Shown here: piece by piece, positions 37,121 to 64,000 of the stretch
How positions within the stretch are numbered: position 1 is the first letter of the stretch
Layout: each line of letters begins with the position of its first letter
IMG/VR virus record: IMGVR_UViG_3300034198_015569
Span: 1 to 64,000 of that record
Source of the DNA: a virus
Strand: one strand, 5' to 3'
Length of the DNA: 64,000 bases
The notes under the pieces: model-generated
Database searches by the model: none
Told to the model about the DNA's origin: nothing
What the model saw: only the letters and a program-made list of their open reading frames with translations
Program-made: the position numbers and the translations under genes

Positions 37121-37145
37121 TTAAATTAATGATCCTGTGAATAAT

Positions 37146-37232
37146 GAGATTGTGGGTTCATGCGAATTCAGGCACAGCACGAATACTTAAAATATTCGAC
37201 CTTTGTGGGTTCGATTCCCACCAATCTCACCA
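37146..37232 (+). tRNA. tRNA-Leu(TAA), atypical D-arm
   Basis: GAGATTG/CAATCTC acceptor, CGAATA-CTTAAAA-TATTCG, GTGGG-TTCGATT-CCCAC, CCA. Confidence 0.7.
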
Positions 37233-37243
37233 ATTTCCCTTTT

Positions 37244-37318
37244 GCGGTTGTAGCTCAATGGTAGAGCAGGGCCTTCTAAACGCCATGGTAGTGGGTTCGA
37301 ATCCCACCTACCGCACCA
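37244..37318 (+). tRNA. tRNA with CTA anticodon (putative amber suppressor)
   Basis: Canonical D and T arms; best register GGGCC-TTCTAAA-CGCCA (3 central pairs); an Arg(TCT) register pairs worse. Confidence 0.6.
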
Positions 37319-57261: not shown

Positions 57262-57609
57262 ATGCAGAAGTTTAATACGCAGCGTCAGCTTTCCAATTAT
57301 AAGAATAAGCATACTCATGAAGTAAATATCAATGAGTTGCGGAATAATATTCTTTATACAATTGCTCTAGCTGATGTTGATACTCGTGAGAAGTATCTAG
57401 AATGGGTTGAGGCATGGAAGAAGACGAACGTTGATCTTGTGAAGCTGATCAAGGCTTATAAGAAGAAGCGTCAGAATCTTTCGAATGATTCGGCTTCTAC
57501 CGAAGGAATTCTTGCTGAAGCTCGCTATCTCGCACAGTCTTTTTATGCGCAGCGTTATCGTATGAAGATTATGTCAATTCTTAATCAGGCTGATGATTTG
57601 GAAGTTTGA
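57262..57609 (+). CDS. helical hypothetical protein (YL.WV..WK family), paralog B
   Basis: EKYLEWVEAWK...FYAQRYRMK; AAGGAG SD. Confidence 0.75.
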   Translation: MQKFNTQRQLSNYKNKHTHEVNINELRNNILYTIALADVDTREKYLEWVEAWKKTNVDLVKLIKAYKKKRQNLSNDSASTEGILAEARYLAQSFYAQRYRMKIMSILNQADDLEV

Positions 57610-58016
57610 ATATAAATAAATTAGGATATTTGTTGAGTTTATTAAATTTATCGTCGGTTTCACAGGGAACAGTAGGTCTTGGATTTGCAATTGCTCATTA
57701 TGTAGCAGAAGGCAAAATAGTTTCCATTCCATTAAACGACAATCAAGATTATGATTTAGTTGTTGAAGAAAATGGGAAACTTAAAAAAGTTCAAGTCAAA
57801 ACATCTCGTGTGAAAGAGAACGGTAATTTTAGAGTCGAAATACGAAAAATTCGATCAAATAAAACAATAAATAAAGTAATAGAATTTAATAATACAACTT
57901 GTGATATTGTATTTGTATATTGTGATGATGGAACAAAATATTCAATACCATCTGATAAAATACATACAAAAACTACAATTGTATTAAATCAAAAGTTTAA
58001 TGAATTTAAACTTTAA
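57606..58016 (+). CDS. PD-(D/E)XK endonuclease (group I intron-associated-like family)
   Basis: VSIPLND.QDYDLVVE...KKVQVKT. Confidence 0.78.
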   Translation: MNINKLGYLLSLLNLSSVSQGTVGLGFAIAHYVAEGKIVSIPLNDNQDYDLVVEENGKLKKVQVKTSRVKENGNFRVEIRKIRSNKTINKVIEFNNTTCDIVFVYCDDGTKYSIPSDKIHTKTTIVLNQKFNEFKL

Positions 58017-59100: not shown

Positions 59101-59490
59101 ATGAACGTTAATCAAAAAGGAGTTAAGGGTTTAATCAAAATTATAGACCATTTAACAGATAAAAGCTGGTATTGTTTTCCAGCTTTTGATGATCATTCTC
59201 CAGTTGACTTGATAATTATGAATGAAGCTGGTAAGCTTATGAAACTCCAGATAAAATATAGGAGTCGCATACAAAGGTTCGTATCAGAAAGATATGAACT
59301 ACAAGCATCTTCCGTTGTCAACGGAAAACGAGTAGATATCAACAGGATTTTAATAGATGGTTGGGGTGTGTATCTTGAGGAAGCACAAAAAGTAGTTTTC
59401 ATCCATAAAAATTATTTAATTAATAAAAAAAGTTTTATTATTAATCCTAATATAAATTACTTATCTTTGGAAGAATGGCCGAGTGGTTGA
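59101..59490 (+). CDS. PD-(D/E)XK endonuclease-like protein
   Basis: KG..G...F...DDHSPVDLI.....KLQIKY; 3' end runs into tRNA-Ser. Confidence 0.65.
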   Translation: MNVNQKGVKGLIKIIDHLTDKSWYCFPAFDDHSPVDLIIMNEAGKLMKLQIKYRSRIQRFVSERYELQASSVVNGKRVDINRILIDGWGVYLEEAQKVVFIHKNYLINKKSFIINPNINYLSLEEWPSG

Positions 59491-59556
59491 TGGCGCTCCT
59501 TTGCTAAAGGAGTGTACGTAACAGTACCATGGGTTCGAATCCCATTTCTTCCGCCA
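59469..59556 (+). tRNA. tRNA-Ser(GCT)
   Basis: CTCCT-TTGCTAA-AGGAG; long variable arm; canonical T-arm; GCCA end. Confidence 0.9.
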
Positions 59557-60593: not shown

Positions 60594-61052
60594 CTAACCA
60601 CAAAAAAAGGAAAAAATTCCTATACATTAAATATATGTTGGGGGAAAAATGTGTATTACGGAAATACCCACCAAATCAGAAAAGTTTGTAAAGGCACAAA
60701 TCATAAAGGCTGAAGAACTGGAAGATAGTTTGGACTCGGATGTTCCGGTGTATTTTGTAAATCCTCGATATAACAACACTGGCTTGTATATTTGTATCGG
60801 GGATAATGGAGAGTATGAAGTTTGGCGAGCAATTTTCTCGGAAGCAACCGAAGAAACTATAGAAGCAAATCTTATAGCTTCATTTCAAACCTTTACAGGA
60901 ATTCTCGAATCAGTCAATATGGAAATCAATCGTGGGTGGTTGTATTTCCATTAAATAATTAAAAGAGAAGATATAATAATCTTCTCTTTTAATGAAAAAT
61001 TGGATTTTGTATATAAATACACGTCCATGATTATAATTAAGTTAATTGAATT

Positions 61053-61100
61053 AGAACGATTTCAGCACTTAAACGCTTGGTATGCAAAAAAGTCGTTCTG
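61053..61100 (+). ncRNA. stem-RNA unit 1 (cargo: GC-TTGGTAT-GC mini-loop)
   Basis: AGAACGATTTCAGCA...AAGTCGTTCTG; late promoter TATAAATA at 61012. Confidence 0.65.
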
Positions 61101-61121
61101 TTAAACAAAAGGAATATTTAA

Positions 61122-62537
61122 ATGAATACTTTCGCACGTAATGTAGCATCAAACGTTGGTGCCTCTTCTCCTAAGATTGCTAAGACCCGCACTGAAAATG
61201 GTGCAGTTGCTTACACTTCATCCGGCAAGGCCAATCTTGATTTGTTTGCTGCAATTGGCGCAGCCCGCTCCCGTGATCTAACCAATGATTTCAAGGCGGC
61301 TCTTAATGAGAATCCTGAATTGGCAACACGTATCCTTCTATGGGCTCGTGATTGTCGTGGTGGTGCTGGTGAACGTTCAACCCCTCGCAAGCTTCTAGCT
61401 GTGCTTGAGACTGTAGACGTTGAACTAGCAGAGAAGGTGCTTCGTAAGCTACCAGAACTTGGCCGTTGGGATGACCTTCTAGATAGCGTTAAGACCCCTC
61501 GCCTTCGTGAGATTGGTTTCGGCCTAATCCGTGACGCTTTGGCGGCTGGTAACGGTCTGTGCGCAAAGTGGATGCCACGTAAGGGTGATGAGGCTATCCA
61601 GCTTCGTTCATTCCTTGGTTGGTCTCCTAAGCGTTACCGTAAGACCCTGGTTTCACTAACCAAGGTTGTAGAACAGCAAATGTCTGCTAAGCAGTGGAGT
61701 GAGATTAAGTATCAATCCGTTCCTTCTGTTGCCATGGCACGCTCGATGAAGGCTTTCAGCCGTAACGATACTGTTCGTTTTGGCGAATACTTAAATAGAG
61801 TAAAAAAGGGCGAAACAAAGATTAATGCCTCTGTGGTATTCCCACATGACATTATTCGCTCTCTAAAGAGCGGACAAACTGCCGGTGCGGATGCTCAATG
61901 GAATGCATTGCCTGATTTTGTTGCATCGGACGAAAACTTTCTTCCAATTTGTGACGTATCAGGATCAATGAGTGTAGCTGTATCGGGTACGGTTTCTGCA
62001 CTAGACGTTTGTCTTGGTCTTGGTCTGTATCTTTCAGAACGTGGTAAAGGTGCCTTTAAGGATATCTTTATGACTTTCTCTGCCCGCCCAACTCTTCAGA
62101 AGGTAAGTGGTTCACTAAGTGAACGTATGAACCAAATGAATCGTGGTGCTTGGGATATGAACACGGACATGGAAGCTGCATTTAATGCTGTACTAGATCA
62201 CGGTATTAAGTACAAAGTTCCGCAGGCAGATATGCCAACCACACTTATTGTCTTCTCCGATATGGAGTTTGATCAGTGTATTCGTAATGGAAATGATACC
62301 ATCTATCGCAATATGCGTAAGCGTTTTGCTGATGCTGGTTACAATGTTCCTAAGGTTGTGTTTTGGAATCTTAATTCCAGAAATAAGCAGTTCCCTGTAA
62401 CTGCAAAAGACCCAAACACTGCACTAGTGTCAGGCTTCAACCCAATTCTTGTTAAGAATCTTCTTGGCAAGGCGAATATCACTCCAGAACAAGTAATGCT
62501 TGACACTGTCATGGTAGAGCGTTATAATCTAGATTGA
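61122..62537 (+). CDS. Ro60/TROVE-like protein with C-terminal vWA (DUF2828-like)
   Basis: TENGAVAY..SG..LDLF, WARDCRGGAGER, GRWDDL, AKWMPR, Y.SVPSVAM, MIDAS DVSGSM, FSDMEFD, VVFWNL, LVSGF. Confidence 0.85.
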   Translation: MNTFARNVASNVGASSPKIAKTRTENGAVAYTSSGKANLDLFAAIGAARSRDLTNDFKAALNENPELATRILLWARDCRGGAGERSTPRKLLAVLETVDVELAEKVLRKLPELGRWDDLLDSVKTPRLREIGFGLIRDALAAGNGLCAKWMPRKGDEAIQLRSFLGWSPKRYRKTLVSLTKVVEQQMSAKQWSEIKYQSVPSVAMARSMKAFSRNDTVRFGEYLNRVKKGETKINASVVFPHDIIRSLKSGQTAGADAQWNALPDFVASDENFLPICDVSGSMSVAVSGTVSALDVCLGLGLYLSERGKGAFKDIFMTFSARPTLQKVSGSLSERMNQMNRGAWDMNTDMEAAFNAVLDHGIKYKVPQADMPTTLIVFSDMEFDQCIRNGNDTIYRNMRKRFADAGYNVPKVVFWNLNSRNKQFPVTAKDPNTALVSGFNPILVKNLLGKANITPEQVMLDTVMVERYNLD

Positions 62538-62538
62538 G

Positions 62539-62563
62539 AGTAGGGGATTCGTTCCCTACTTTC
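62539..62563 (+). terminator. hairpin after the Ro60-like gene
   Basis: AGTAGGGGA-TTCG-TTCCCTACT followed by TT. Confidence 0.65.
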
Positions 62564-62572
62564 CTTAAGTTT

Positions 62573-62632
62573 AGGGCAATTTCAGCAAACATTTTAAATT
62601 TTTCTTTGTACGAAAAACTAAAAGTTGCCCTG
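62573..62632 (+). ncRNA. stem-RNA unit 2 (cargo: anticodon-like stem-loop, TGT)
   Basis: AGGGCAATTTCAGCAA...TTTTTC-TTTGTAC-GAAAAA...AAGTTGCCCTG. Confidence 0.7.
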
Positions 62633-62638
62633 TAATTA

Positions 62639-62702
62639 AGAACAATTTCAGCAAGTATTTAATACTTTTCCGCCAACAATTGGAAAATAAAACGTTGTTC
62701 TG
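62639..62702 (+). ncRNA. stem-RNA unit 3 (cargo: permuted acceptor minihelix with GCCA)
   Basis: AGAACAATTTCAGCAA...TTTTCC-GCCA-ACAATT-GGAAAA...GTTGTTCTG. Confidence 0.65.
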
Positions 62703-62720
62703 TTAAAATAAAGGATTATT

Positions 62721-62975
62721 ATGAATTTAGATGATGTTACTGCTGGTAATATGCGAACACTTTCCGAAAGATCGCTTCTTACTTTAAAAGAGGATGAATT
62801 TAGGAAAATTCGAAATCTTATTCATAATGCGGCAAATTCTGGTGCATATTATATTCAATGTGATATAAAGTATCCAGAAACAGAGAATATGTTAAAAGAT
62901 TTAGGTTTTAAGTTTAAAATTATGACCTTTAATAAAGATGTTACCACGTATAAAATTACATGGTGGATTGATTAA
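62721..62975 (+). CDS. small hypothetical protein embedded in the RNA array
   Basis: 84 aa with AAGGA SD. Confidence 0.7.
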   Translation: MNLDDVTAGNMRTLSERSLLTLKEDEFRKIRNLIHNAANSGAYYIQCDIKYPETENMLKDLGFKFKIMTFNKDVTTYKITWWID

Positions 62976-62981
62976 GAATTG

Positions 62982-63105
62982 AGAACCATTTCAGCAAATT
63001 TACTTTTATTTGCCTACGAAGCAAAAGGTGTCGGTTCGAGCCCGGCCCACCACACCAACTATGTGGTGGTAGTTTAATTGGATAGAACTTTATAAGGTGG
63101 TTCTG
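62982..63105 (+). ncRNA. stem-RNA unit 4 carrying a circularly permuted tRNA-Arg(ACG)
   Basis: AGAACCATTTCAGCAA...anticodon arm, T-arm, 3' acceptor + ACCA, linker, 5' acceptor, D-arm...GTGGTTCTG. Confidence 0.8.
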
Positions 63106-63122
63106 ATAAAAGATTAGAATTA

Positions 63123-63178
63123 AGAACGATTTCAGCAACTTAAAAATTTCACTGTTAATGAAAACCAAAGTCGTTCTG
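63123..63178 (+). ncRNA. stem-RNA unit 5 (cargo: anticodon stem-loop, GTT)
   Basis: AGAACGATTTCAGCAA...TTTCA-CTGTTAA-TGAAA...AAGTCGTTCTG. Confidence 0.75.
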
Positions 63179-63187
63179 ATAAAATTT

Positions 63188-63297
63188 AGGATATTTTCAG
63201 CAATCTAAATTTCAAACAATGTAACATGGGTTCGAATCCCATACATTCGAAAGAATGTTAGCCAAGTGGTAAGGCAATTGTCAAAAAAGTTATCCTG
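63188..63297 (+). ncRNA. stem-RNA unit 6, YrlA-like tRNA mimic
   Basis: T-arm ATGGG-TTCGAAT-CCCAT, closed acceptor ACATTC-GAAA-GAATGT, D-arm GCC-AAGTGGTAA-GGC, all inside the AGGATA/TATCCT stem. Confidence 0.8.
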
Positions 63298-63425
63298 TTA
63301 AAATTATGGGCAAGACCCGAAATTCTTATGCGTCGGGAGATATTACAAGCGTGTTAATGGGGGCTATGTAATAATTAAATTTCCGGTTGACAAAAAATTA
63401 ACTTGGTGTATAAATAATAGAATAT

Positions 63426-63500
63426 TGCTGGCGGGAGGTTTAGAATCTCATTGGTCTCATAAACCAAAGAACTGGTGCAAATCCATGGCTTCAGCAACCA
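63426..63500 (+). tRNA. tRNA-Met(CAT), atypical
   Basis: TTGGT-CTCATAA-ACCAA; ends CAGCAACCA; T-arm irregular. Confidence 0.62.
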
Positions 63501-63506
63501 ATTTAA

Positions 63507-63592
63507 TGCGGGGACAAGCCGGAGTGGCTAACTAGCCTCATAAGCTAGAGATTAATTTCTAATGGAATGTGCAACTCATTCCCCCGCAACCA
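63507..63592 (+). tRNA. tRNA-Met(CAT), fMet-like acceptor, long variable arm
   Basis: TGCGGG.../CCCGCAACCA; CTAGC-CTCATAA-GCTAG; T-loop TGCAACT. Confidence 0.65.
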
Positions 63593-63763
63593 ACACGGTA
63601 AGGTTTACTATTCTTATCCCATATAATGGTGTGATATTAATGGGTAAATCATATTGACGGCGAGGGCAAAGATCAAAGCGGGAAACCGGCACATTCGTTG
63701 TTCTATTTGAGGATAGACTTTGTGGGGGCCAGTCAATAATTATTTTAAAAGGTTAAACATTGA

Positions 63764-64000
63764 GTGTTTTGTTTAAATTGTAATAAAGAAACAAAGAATC
63801 CAAAATATTGTTGTAGATCATGTTCTGTATCTAAAAATAATTTAGGCGTACAAAGAAATAAACCAGTTGACAAAATATGTTTAAACTGTAGTAATAAAGT
63901 AAAACGAAATAAATCGAAATTTTGTTCTATGGAATGTTCCTTAAATTATAAGGCTATAGAAAAGAGAAGAGAAGTTTTAAGTAATCTTGAAAATGGAAAA
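63764..64000 (+). CDS. partial Zn-ribbon protein, probable tRNA-adjacent endonuclease (runs off the window)
   Basis: GTG start; CLNC...YCCRSCS and CLNC...FCSMECS repeats like the N-terminus of 48808-49467. Confidence 0.55.
   Translation, partial: MFCLNCNKETKNPKYCCRSCSVSKNNLGVQRNKPVDKICLNCSNKVKRNKSKFCSMECSLNYKAIEKRREVLSNLENGK

Follow-up and report, generated by a model that had tools for sequence, protein, structure and literature searches.

Putative Handle RNAs of a Phage Genome: tRNA-Like Cargo beside the Gene of a Predicted Ro60-Fold Protein

Overview

Unit 6 is an element of about 110 nt in the first 64 kb (hereafter the window) of a virus record of 88,427 bases from IMG/VR (IMGVR_UViG_3300034198_015569; estimated completeness 36%), in which a handle, namely a terminal stem (P1) accompanied by conserved motifs, encloses the T-arm, the acceptor helix, and the D-arm of a tRNA in permuted order. 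It is likely to be a non-coding RNA gene, one of seven handle RNAs of this phage, whose handle would be bound by a Ro60-fold protein and whose tRNA-like part would be an exchangeable cargo. The handle is conserved and covarying in many phages, it is coupled at the genome level to a gene with the DUF2828 and DUF7788 domains, and the product of this gene is predicted to have the Ro60 fold; the handle RNAs and the DUF2828 Ro60-fold protein apparently represent a widespread and undescribed cousin of the Ro60/Y-RNA particles. No family of Rfam 15 covers the handle, its association with DUF2828 proteins, or the series of cargoes, and no description of them was found in the literature searched; tRNA-like Y RNAs beside Ro60, phages included, are already known from the reports in PMC4201824 and PMC12135203 and from a survey of jumbo phages (PMC7824862).

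Anatomy of Unit 6

The two halves of the handle and the tRNA-like module are placed in Table 1. Inside the handle, direct reading gives ACAAT (63216-63220) and a variable region GTAAC (63221-63225), followed by a T-arm of 5 bp with the loop TTCGAAT (63226-63242), an acceptor hairpin of 6 perfect pairs with a GAAA loop (63243-63258), TA (63259-63260; UA in the RNA), which joins the acceptor hairpin to the D-arm, the D-arm itself (63261-63275; 3 bp and a 9-nt loop containing GG), an A (63276), and ATTGT (63277-63281). The 3' half of the handle continues with the A-rich strand (63282-63290, with CAAAAAAG at 63282-63289), the 3' strand of P1 (63291-63296), and the conserved G (63297); P1 counts 6 Watson-Crick pairs and a U/U at position 7. 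Every element that a first-pass annotation had listed for 63188-63297 was found in its place by direct reading. The same annotation had the anticodon stem (ATTGT/ACAAT) continuing into the carrier stem; both stems are present, but the "anticodon stem" is separated from the closing stem by about 22 nt (5') and 9 nt (3'), in which the conserved motifs are located.

The bases kept in tRNAs are found by position in 63216-63281 (U8, A14, G15 with C48, G18, G19, and A21) and in the T-arm (G53:C61 and T54-T55-C56-R57-A58), the numbering being that of the tRNA convention. The acceptor is GNRA-capped and has neither CCA nor spacer; no 5' tRNA half stands before the T-arm, and neither an anticodon nor a T-arm follows the D-arm. 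Since it has no anticodon loop and no free CCA end, unit 6 is unable to decode or to accept an amino acid. The possibility that it is a permuted tRNA gene matured to a working tRNA was considered and is ruled out, for unit 6 only, by the missing anticodon loop.

Unit 6 against Chance

A strict grammar for the full arrangement gave 8 matches in 1.13 Mb of real sequence versus 0 in three shuffles; the 8 include units 6 and 7, and about 3 of them look false. Among known families, the Rfam YrlA model (RF02553) aligns to 63202-63297 at 25.2 bits (expectation value, E, 0.012 in a 1.6-kb search). A covariance model of the module, R2, was built from 10 modules (alignment A5) of eight other phage contigs, none of them from this genome, with L055_1341, L004_4960, L019_4537, and L055_1465 left out of an initial 14; it aligns end to end with 63216-63281 at 50.9 bits (rough E 6e-15). 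The handle model R1, built from 23 short units of many phages and with unit 6 outside its training set, finds the element at 63187-63303 (35.8 bits, E 5.9e-7), and its search of the window gave nothing convincing beyond the handle units. Pair probabilities in the folding ensemble are 0.80-0.99 for P1, 0.75-0.91 for the T-arm, 0.73-0.86 for the acceptor hairpin, and 0.6 for the D-arm. The observation of unit 6 is confirmed.

The Handle and Its Seven Units

Six of the seven handle RNAs of this phage fragment lie in the window and the seventh beyond it (Table 1). Each has its own 7-bp stem sequence, and common to all are the 7-bp terminal stem, U(U/A)CAGCAA by the 5' strand, an A-rich 3' run, and a G after the stem; in the units of this genome the motif reads U-U-U-CAGCA-A/C after the 5' strand, and the definition proposed for the whole family is U(U/A/G)CAGCAA 1-2 nt after the 5' strand with an A-rich run before the 3' strand. 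Unit 6 carries the stem with its G and the motif with the A-rich run, and it stands amid tRNAs on the same strand as the nearby DUF2828+DUF7788 gene. Units follow each other in tandem with gaps of 2-9 nt. Unit 1 ends 16 nt before the ATG of the Ro60-like gene, and this position directly upstream of the gene is also occupied in the complete genomes G001, G004, and G009; unit 3 ends 13 nt before an open reading frame (ORF) of 84 aa (62721-62975). Unit 4, which holds in order an anticodon-arm-like hairpin, a T-arm, an 8-bp acceptor with a CCA-containing loop, and a D-arm, gets only a partial match from R1.

The structure of the handle was followed in an RNA-first pattern scan of viral contigs, in which five stem pairs and the motif were fixed and which returned at least 140 stretches. 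The two free stem positions pair in 121 of the 122 distinct matches, with 13 dinucleotide combinations, and this covariation was not built in by selection because these positions had been left free in the pattern. In alignment A2, whose rows had been chosen for a perfect stem, P1 is 100% paired and 6 of its 7 pairs covary; handle position 8 is mostly non-canonical (G/A, U/C, A/C). As judged from sequence comparison, the handle is a real RNA structure. In one locus (L005 989-1051), a short handle RNA is read by the Rfam tRNA model, at 18.8 bits, as a tRNA that lacks both the D- and the T-arm: its 7-bp stem takes the place of the acceptor, the inner hairpin that of the anticodon arm, and the G after the stem that of the discriminator. 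The handle itself may be descended from a tRNA.

Cargo Classes

The constant handle carries three classes of cargo, that is anticodon-arm look-alikes, tRNA top halves, and whole tRNA bodies. A catalogue made with regular expressions, which is crude, includes false positives, and gives rough proportions only, counts 451 units, 353 of them distinct. A 4-6-bp stem with a 7-nt loop of anticodon-loop form is present in 101 of the 353 distinct units, and the middle triplets of these loops are mostly TTT (29), TGT (17), TCT (8), TGA (8), GGA (7), and GTT (7), a list in which the TTT count may be inflated by AT-richness. T-arm, acceptor, and D-arm modules are carried by about 33 units; the acceptor is sealed by a short loop in unit 6, in Mycobacterium phage Lolly9, and in three units of another locus (L055), and in units 4 and 7, as in many others, it is a 7-8-bp helix whose loop contains CCA. 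In about 13 units the cargo is a normally ordered tRNA body whose acceptor stem is replaced by the handle, and these bodies, without their ends, are matched by the Rfam tRNA model at 46-57 bits.

An array in locus L028 (4345-4610) is made of adjacent units with identical stem sequence; because neighbours share the stem, this chain can equally be read as tRNAs, with a perfect acceptor and CCA, in which a tetraloop-closed handle stands for the anticodon loop. In the genome studied here the within-unit reading holds, because neighbouring stems differ.

Distribution and Coupling to the DUF2828 Gene

In 80 viral loci with a DUF2828 gene, R1 gave 91 matches in 60 loci, and in 80 metagenome loci with such a gene it gave 83 matches in 59 loci (E <=0.01 in both); the two sets overlap, some loci being the same contig. 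All 174 matches in the 160 gene loci are on the gene strand, and most flank the gene directly. Starting from the RNA, the protein is encoded by 19 of the 25 handle-bearing contigs of at least 30 kb, including 3 of 3 complete genomes, and the six such contigs that do not hold the gene are 9-32% complete. In the complete genomes, of 172, 235, and 364 kb, all handles (4, 6, and 4, respectively) are located at most 16 kb upstream of the gene on the same strand, one of them in the leader of the gene.

A DUF2828-type protein is found in 695 records of cultured phages. In Salmonella phage SP116, of the Felix O1 type, the gene heads a cluster of 22 tRNAs and 3 handles lie in gaps between tRNAs. Lolly9 has 3 tandem units after the gene, closing with a terminator-like hairpin, and the middle unit is a sealed-acceptor tRNA mimic like unit 6, matched by Rfam YrlA at 37.7 bits. 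Listeria phage LP-048 shows 2 handles before the gene, which is followed by an RtcB ligase and an HD phosphohydrolase; in the same phage (L305 1427-1978), tRNA genes flank a match to the ROOL RNA of 90 bits (cut-off 99.1), which is found 1 kb before the DUF2828 gene and its two handles.

Handles are also held by dense tRNA arrays (17 RNA-first loci with >150 tRNA matches), where they are on the tRNA strand; this location, and their occupation of the gaps in the Felix O1-type tRNA cluster, would suit a role of the units as processing punctuation of a tRNA-cluster transcript, that is as marks cut by RNase P, RNase Z, or another nuclease, with no protein partner and no free RNA. The CCA in the 7-8-bp acceptor loop of units 4 and 7 and of many relatives points in the same direction, as does the ability of the Rfam tRNA model to read a short unit as an armless tRNA with P1 as the acceptor stem. 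Punctuation is nevertheless improbable as the explanation: the sealed acceptors without CCA of unit 6, Lolly9, and the three L055 units leave RNase P and RNase Z without a site, a signal for cutting would not require an 8-nt single-stranded motif to stay invariant across phages of Proteobacteria, Actinobacteria, and Firmicutes, and the tight genome-level coupling to one protein gene would be left unexplained.

The positions of single units bear on another reading, in which the handle is a cis-acting operator or leader that controls the translation or stability of the downstream gene and the tRNA-like inserts are incidental. Units 1, 3, and 7 end 13-25 nt ahead of a start codon and each of the complete genomes examined has a unit in the leader of its Ro60-like gene, as would suit an operator; against it, no ORF lies behind unit 6, where a separate promoter-like site comes next and tRNA-like genes after it, the units stand in tandem 2-9 nt apart and between tRNA genes, and the leader copy is equally explained by autoregulation through the same protein, so that this reading is very unlikely.

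The Proposed Ro60-Fold Partner Protein

The DUF2828+DUF7788 family is in part recognised by domain models of the vWA type, VWA_2 matching 6 of 20 family members and vWA_Ro60 1 of the 20. In a comparison of profiles by HHalign, the family (20 rows) and the TROVE proteins of the CcrColossus type (23 rows) were aligned with 95.8% probability (E 7.8e-9), a result that supersedes the 58.7% obtained against only 3 TROVE proteins; the aligned residues 233-448, about 215 at the C-terminal side, comprise the end of the TROVE region, the entire vWA domain, and a C-terminal motif. A sequence-profile search of the PDB gave as its sole weak matches TROVE entries at the MIDAS (metal-ion-dependent adhesion site) motif (E 0.047).

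The structure predicted by AlphaFold was compared with the PDB by Foldseek; ranks 1-13 are all Ro60/TROVE proteins (phage phiLo, Xenopus, human, and Deinococcus) with E from 1.8e-9 to 5e-6, template modelling (TM) scores of 0.50-0.66, and about 500-570 aligned columns, and the best match is phiRo60 (PDB 9kop, 9l5y); below rank 13 only bare vWA domains are found, with TM scores <=0.27. When the DUF2828 clusters are skipped, the 30 nearest named ESM clusters are all TROVE. Because HHalign, Foldseek, and the ESM neighbours point to Ro60/TROVE, the protein is regarded as a Ro60-fold protein that sequence profiles file apart; in the model it is predicted to match the Ro60 fold over its whole length, with a helical-repeat ring and a C-terminal vWA domain with MIDAS. 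PADLOC gave no match for it.

Proposed Mechanism and Its Weighing

The handle would be the binding site of the phage Ro60-fold protein, as the stem of Y RNAs is for Ro60, a role suggested by co-occurrence and analogy; binding by the DUF2828 protein would depend on UUCAGCAA and on P1. The part inside the handle would be an exchangeable cargo, which in unit 6 would be a tRNA "top half", i.e., the elbow of T-arm and D-arm with a 6-bp acceptor helix sealed by GAAA. Once transcribed, this cargo could dock onto, or divert, factors that read the shape of tRNA, such as processing and modifying enzymes or host nucleases that attack tRNAs, and the sister units would present other tRNA surfaces, from anticodon arms to whole bodies with CCA. 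The copy of the handle in the leader of the gene would permit feedback control. The setting, with tRNA arrays, a phosphoesterase, an RNA ligase, and NAD (nicotinamide adenine dinucleotide) salvage, to which the Listeria phage adds RtcB, fits either the upkeep of tRNAs or a contest over them.

A number of observations weigh against this reading. The TROVE hidden Markov model (HMM; PF05731) matches neither the protein nor anything in a six-frame search of the genome at E up to 10, the first ~230 residues of the protein are left unaligned by HHalign, and the AlphaFold model is of moderate confidence (predicted local distance difference test 76.9, predicted TM score 0.69). As for the coupling, 41 of the 160 gene loci have no handle (E <=0.01, within 2.5 kb), the gene lies within 2 kb in just 8 of 80 RNA-first loci, and in Stenotrophomonas phage DLP_6, Campylobacter phage CP30A, and Vibrio phage 6E35-1b the 3-6 kb around the gene gave no handle; the binding of handle and protein is itself proposed from co-occurrence and analogy. 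The covariation of the module, assessed in an alignment of 17 modules (T-arm 100% paired, acceptor 80%, D-arm 78%, with both-sided changes in 15 of 16 pairs), is a partly circular test because the parser that selected the rows demanded the helices. In unit 6, the energy model pairs ATTGT with GCAAT of the conserved motif (p ~0.7, minimum free energy -23.0), and the ACAAT/ATTGT pairing has p ~0.01 and -18.6 kcal/mol; it is the latter pairing that yields tRNA geometry, and units of other phages can be parsed cleanly with its equivalent. Finally, the tRNA-tRNA junction at 37199-37272 receives 47.0 bits from R2 and other junctions of adjacent tRNAs up to 38 bits, so that the R2 score alone is not decisive for unit 6.

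The junction scores, together with the warning about such junctions in Chen et al. 2014 (PMC4201824), would agree with unit 6 being a decayed remnant, either a tRNA pseudogene or a junction of two tRNAs that resembles a permuted tRNA. Such an origin is hardly credible: unit 6 is told apart from a tRNA junction by six perfect acceptor pairs with a GNRA cap and neither CCA nor spacer, by the lack of other tRNA halves flanking the module, and by the enclosing handle, which is significant in its own right, and the same design recurs in unrelated phages. Close relatives with two intact tRNA genes at the place of unit 6 were not found, the nearest relatives of the gene being <=51% identical.

The significance of a handle RNA system with a Ro60-fold partner would lie in its parallel to the known one. 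The Y RNAs in which tRNA-like domains are known have all been partners of TROVE-type Ro60; this locus would be a parallel system with another sharply conserved handle, a partner protein filed under a DUF, and a natural cargo series on one handle, which, from the anticodon arm through the tRNA top half to the whole tRNA body, acts as a ready-made structure-function experiment. The idea is directly testable because carriers are cultured, among them Felix O1-type coliphages (E. coli K-12), mycobacteriophages of M. smegmatis, and P100-type phages of Listeria. If it is true, a large DUF family would gain a function and the unannotated gaps in phage tRNA clusters would be explained.

Probable Origin of the Cargo

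The 17-mer of the unit 6 T-arm is present twice in the genome, in unit 6 and in tRNA-Ser(GCU) (at 59529), and in 2.5 Mb of other loci it is matched by none of the 1,346 T-arm-like elements, 572 of which are distinct. The likeness extends into the variable region (26 of 28 aligned, with a 2-nt gap); the comparison suggests that the T-arm was probably copied from the tRNA-Ser of the phage itself. The D-arm is identical in 16 of 17 positions to that of tRNA-Thr(CGU), a likeness that may be mere consensus.

Unit 6 had been described as opened at a point different from that of unit 4, and this was borne out, unit 4 being opened between the D-arm and an intact anticodon-arm-like hairpin (5 bp, 7-nt loop). 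The further suggestion of independent captures of tRNA sequence is plausible, and separate acquisitions are likely: the T-arm of unit 6 is that of tRNA-Ser, and the arms of units 4 and 7 differ from those of unit 6. The subtype of unit 4 is also found in two other phages (L004, L019).

Genomic Setting

The window belongs to an AT-rich phage and holds 20 tRNA genes, every one on the + strand (ARAGORN); a scan of the whole window with Rfam at the gathering cut-off gave tRNA matches and no other family. The region 61000-63400 is present wholly or partly in 4 DNA-type metagenome runs of 2 studies and in none of RNA type. The best relatives of the DUF2828+DUF7788 protein have 49% identity in viral contigs and 51% in metagenome contigs, and a blastn search of the locus against phages gave short gene fragments and nothing longer. 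The features that make up the array are collected in Table 1.

Table 1. Handle units, parts of unit 6, and associated features (coordinates of the window unless stated).
Feature	Position	Strand	Evidence and remarks
tRNA-Ser(GCU)	59469..59556	+	ARAGORN; likely donor of, or gene-conversion partner for, the unit 6 T-arm
Unit 1, short handle RNA in the leader of the Ro60-like gene	61052..61106	+	R1 46.8 bits (training-set member)
DUF2828+DUF7788 protein gene, 471 aa, vWA domain with DVSGSM MIDAS	61122..62537	+	Pfam E 2.3e-50 and 9.6e-33; PHROG 850 "RNA-binding protein"
Promoter-like site, 12/12 sigma-70 consensus, inside the 3' end of the Ro60-like gene	62500..62528	+	Consensus scan only, candidate promoter
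Unit 2, cargo a hairpin with a 7-nt anticodon-like loop	62572..62638	+	R1 49.1 bits (training-set member); Rfam Dicty_Class_I 19.7 bits
Unit 3, short hairpin cargo	62638..62708	+	R1 53.3 bits (training-set member)
Unit 4, handle with a nearly whole permuted tRNA	62981..63112	+	Rfam YrlA 28.7 bits; R2 41.8 bits at 63020-63095; parser
Unit 5, cargo a 5-bp stem with the 7-nt loop CUGUUAA (Asn-type anticodon-loop look-alike)	63122..63184	+	R1 51.4 bits (training-set member); Rfam Dicty_Class_I 24.3 bits
Unit 6, handle with tRNA top-half/elbow mimic, closed acceptor	63187..63303	+	R1 35.8 bits; R2 50.9 bits; Rfam YrlA 25.2 bits; fold
Unit 6, handle 5' half: P1 strand 63188-63193, one spacer base, UUUCAGCAA 63195-63203	63188..63203	+	Direct reading, R1
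Unit 6, tRNA-like module	63216..63281	+	Parser; R2 full-length alignment
Unit 6, handle 3' half: A-rich strand, P1 strand, conserved G	63282..63297	+	Direct reading, R1
Unit 7	genome 65670-65800, outside the window		tRNA-like module, CCA-type acceptor loop

Between the promoter-like site of Table 1 and units 2-6, which, going by the consensus match, this site could drive, lies a 12-bp hairpin (62536-62563). The 84-aa ORF between units 3 and 4 has a weak match, under the cut-off, to phage translational regulators of the RegA type (E 0.036). Downstream of the array, a promoter-like TTGACA...TATAAA (~63380-63410) precedes two tRNA-like sequences with CAU anticodon loops that are uncalled by ARAGORN: the first (63419-63494) folds poorly and is matched by Rfam tRNA at 18.4 bits, and the second (63509-63593) can be folded into a cloverleaf that has an additional arm and an unusual T-loop (UGCAACU) and whose ...CCA end is encoded. 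An ORF for an HNH endonuclease begins at 63764.

Phosphoesterase and NAD-salvage genes and an RNA ligase are located in the neighbourhood of the RNA array; in particular, a fusion of nicotinamide mononucleotide adenylyltransferase and Nudix, a nicotinamide phosphoribosyltransferase, and an OB-fold RNA ligase follow it outside the window (L081 3134-7759, corresponding to genome 66134-70759), and a comparable set lies close to the DUF2828 gene of Stenotrophomonas phage DLP_6 (L303). Among the last tRNA genes there are two PD-(D/E)XK_5 ORFs (57606-58016 and 59101-59490), which are homing-endonuclease-like, the first with a PADLOC "HEase" match. In another part of the tRNA cluster, an uncalled tRNA-like gene with acceptor, anticodon-like arm, T-arm, and CCA (37121-37243) lies between tRNA-Leu(UAA) and the next tRNA, its junction with the latter being the one to which R2 gives 47 bits, and the tRNA at 37244-37318, with a CUA anticodon and the ARAGORN label "Pyl", is a possible amber suppressor.

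Comparison with Known Systems

The closest known RNA is YrlA (RF02553), which, as described in PMC4201824, shares with unit 6 a permuted T-arm, a closed acceptor stem-loop, and a D-arm, with the ends leaving through the position of the anticodon stem. Unit 6 is closed at the same position and has the nucleotides of tRNA tertiary structure (T-loop TTCRA, D-loop GG, U8, A14, and 15:48); YrlA is encoded at up to about 4 kb from a TROVE-domain Ro60 orthologue and on its strand, and unit 6 lies 650 nt downstream, on the same strand, of a gene whose product is predicted to be a Ro60-fold ring protein and is unmatched by the TROVE HMM; several different RNAs are present per locus in both. Some relatives have a 7-8-bp acceptor with CCA, like the YrlA of M. 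smegmatis, which is cut by RNase P. The handle differs from the outer part of YrlA, being a 7-bp stem with U(U/A)CAGCAA and an A-rich strand, whereas the YrlA of PMC4201824 has GNCGAAN0-1G in the 5' strand of the helix that binds Ro60. The partner is a DUF2828+DUF7788 protein, invisible to the TROVE HMM, and the cargo is far more varied, with anticodon-arm-only units and tRNA bodies in normal order.

These likenesses leave room for unit 6 being an unannotated member of YrlA that serves a divergent orthodox Ro60 (Rsr) and tethers it to, or gates it with, PNPase as in Salmonella, Mycobacterium, and Deinococcus. The order of the modules is the same, YrlA is the best Rfam family match, the partner has a predicted Ro60 fold, and several Y RNAs per locus are normal in Ro60 systems (Chen et al. 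2014, PMC4201824). Membership is unlikely, since unit 6 reaches 25.2 bits against a gathering cut-off of 69 and its sister and related units 28.7-41.2 bits, with none of this type above 41.2. In units 4, 6, and 7 and in all 13 related DUF2828-type units, the 60 nt that precede the module do not contain GNCGAAN0-1G; in its strict form this motif is also scarce in the modules of the TROVE type (CcrColossus type; 5 of 30). CAGCA, in turn, stands before the module in 12 of the 13 DUF2828-type units and in units 4, 6, and 7, versus 2 of 30 TROVE-type units. R1 has no match in 35 CcrColossus-type TROVE loci (148 kb), nor around the Ro genes of Bxz1, CcrColossus, and phage G, and in the same 35 loci R2 detects 46 modules, each on the strand of the gene; 30 score 45-67 bits and stand immediately before it. 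The DUF2828 protein is encoded by none of 23 TROVE-type contigs, 14 of which are at least 90% complete, and the 22 phages with YrlA in Table S2 of Chen et al. 2014 (PMC4201824) all have TROVE proteins and none of the DUF2828 type.

From these controls of models, gene, and motif it follows that the two systems share the cargo, each with its own handle and its own protein. The first-pass label of unit 6 as "YrlA-type" therefore stands in the sense of an analogue and fails in the sense of membership, for which the score with the Rfam model proposed as a check, the missing GNCGAA motif, and a partner outside the TROVE HMM all speak against it. The YrlA topology that it had recognised is upheld by the order of T-arm, closed acceptor, and D-arm, by YrlA being the best Rfam match, and by the modules found with R2 beside TROVE genes, and its view of the whole family as Y-RNA analogues is supported by the co-occurrence of the shared handle with a gene of predicted Ro60 fold (HHalign 95.8%).

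Phage Ro60-fold proteins with small RNAs encoded alongside are also described in Thermus phage phiLo, where phiRo60 is accompanied by Yrl1 and Yrl2 (PMC12135203), and, according to Table S2 of PMC4201824, in mycobacteriophages of cluster C, in CcrColossus, and in Bacillus phage G. Unlike the handle RNAs, the RNAs of these systems are characterised by CGAA within a bulged stem, and, unlike the DUF2828 proteins, their proteins carry a recognisable TROVE domain.

In the Y RNAs of metazoans and Deinococcus, one module, the terminal stem, is bound to the ring protein, and the second attracts further factors, such as PNPase in Deinococcus, or keeps them away. The handle RNAs are, like them, modular small RNAs with a conserved non-canonical position by the stem (here position 8); they differ in sequence motifs, and the recruitment of PNPase is a trait of the Deinococcus system. 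In the permuted tRNA genes of red algae and in two-piece transfer-messenger RNA, the 3' half is encoded before the 5' half and the acceptor ends are joined by a short linker. Linker-joined acceptor ends are shared by the phage modules, and in units 4 and 7 the linker contains CCA; permuted tRNA and transfer-messenger RNA genes yield a working product after processing, which unit 6, with no anticodon loop and a sealed acceptor, cannot do.

The handle also resembles, outside the phage world, the Class I RNAs of Dictyostelium, which are 42-65 nt long and have a short covarying stem that joins the ends, an 11-nt motif by the 5' strand, and a variable remainder (Kjellin et al. 2021, PMC7919456). 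With tRNA set aside, 4 short units have their best Rfam match in Class I RNA (RF01414), which they follow in register along the whole model at 15.9-24.3 bits (24.3 and 19.7 for units 5 and 2, 21.4 and 15.9 for units of another phage), below the cut-off of 41.5; unit 6 itself is not matched by the Rfam Class I model. The short units, of about 50-65 nt, have likewise a covarying stem, a motif after the 5' strand, an A-rich 3' side, and 3' ...CUG, and the Class I motif in its Rfam consensus includes UUACAGCAA, which is exactly the variant seen in the handles of Felix O1-type phages, Lolly9, and Listeria phages. Unlike the phage handles, Class I RNAs are eukaryotic, carry an upstream promoter element of their own, and reportedly occur in Dictyostelia alone, and the only binder named is the RRM protein Rnp1A (PMC7919456); a tRNA-like cargo such as that of the phage units is not known in them. 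The DUF2828 family is also listed from eukaryotes.

It is a doubtful but far-reaching idea that the phage handle and Class I belong to the same RNA class, with DUF2828 proteins as the missing partner of both, in a second cross-kingdom branch of Ro60/Y-RNA systems whose phage cargo baits or blunts tRNA enzymes. If this were true, the Class I RNAs, which are abundant and developmentally important, would gain a protein partner, and the anticodon loops displayed as cargo, among which the Lys, Thr, Arg, Ser, and Asn types are the most frequent, would serve to bait or blunt host enzymes acting on tRNAs by cleavage or modification.

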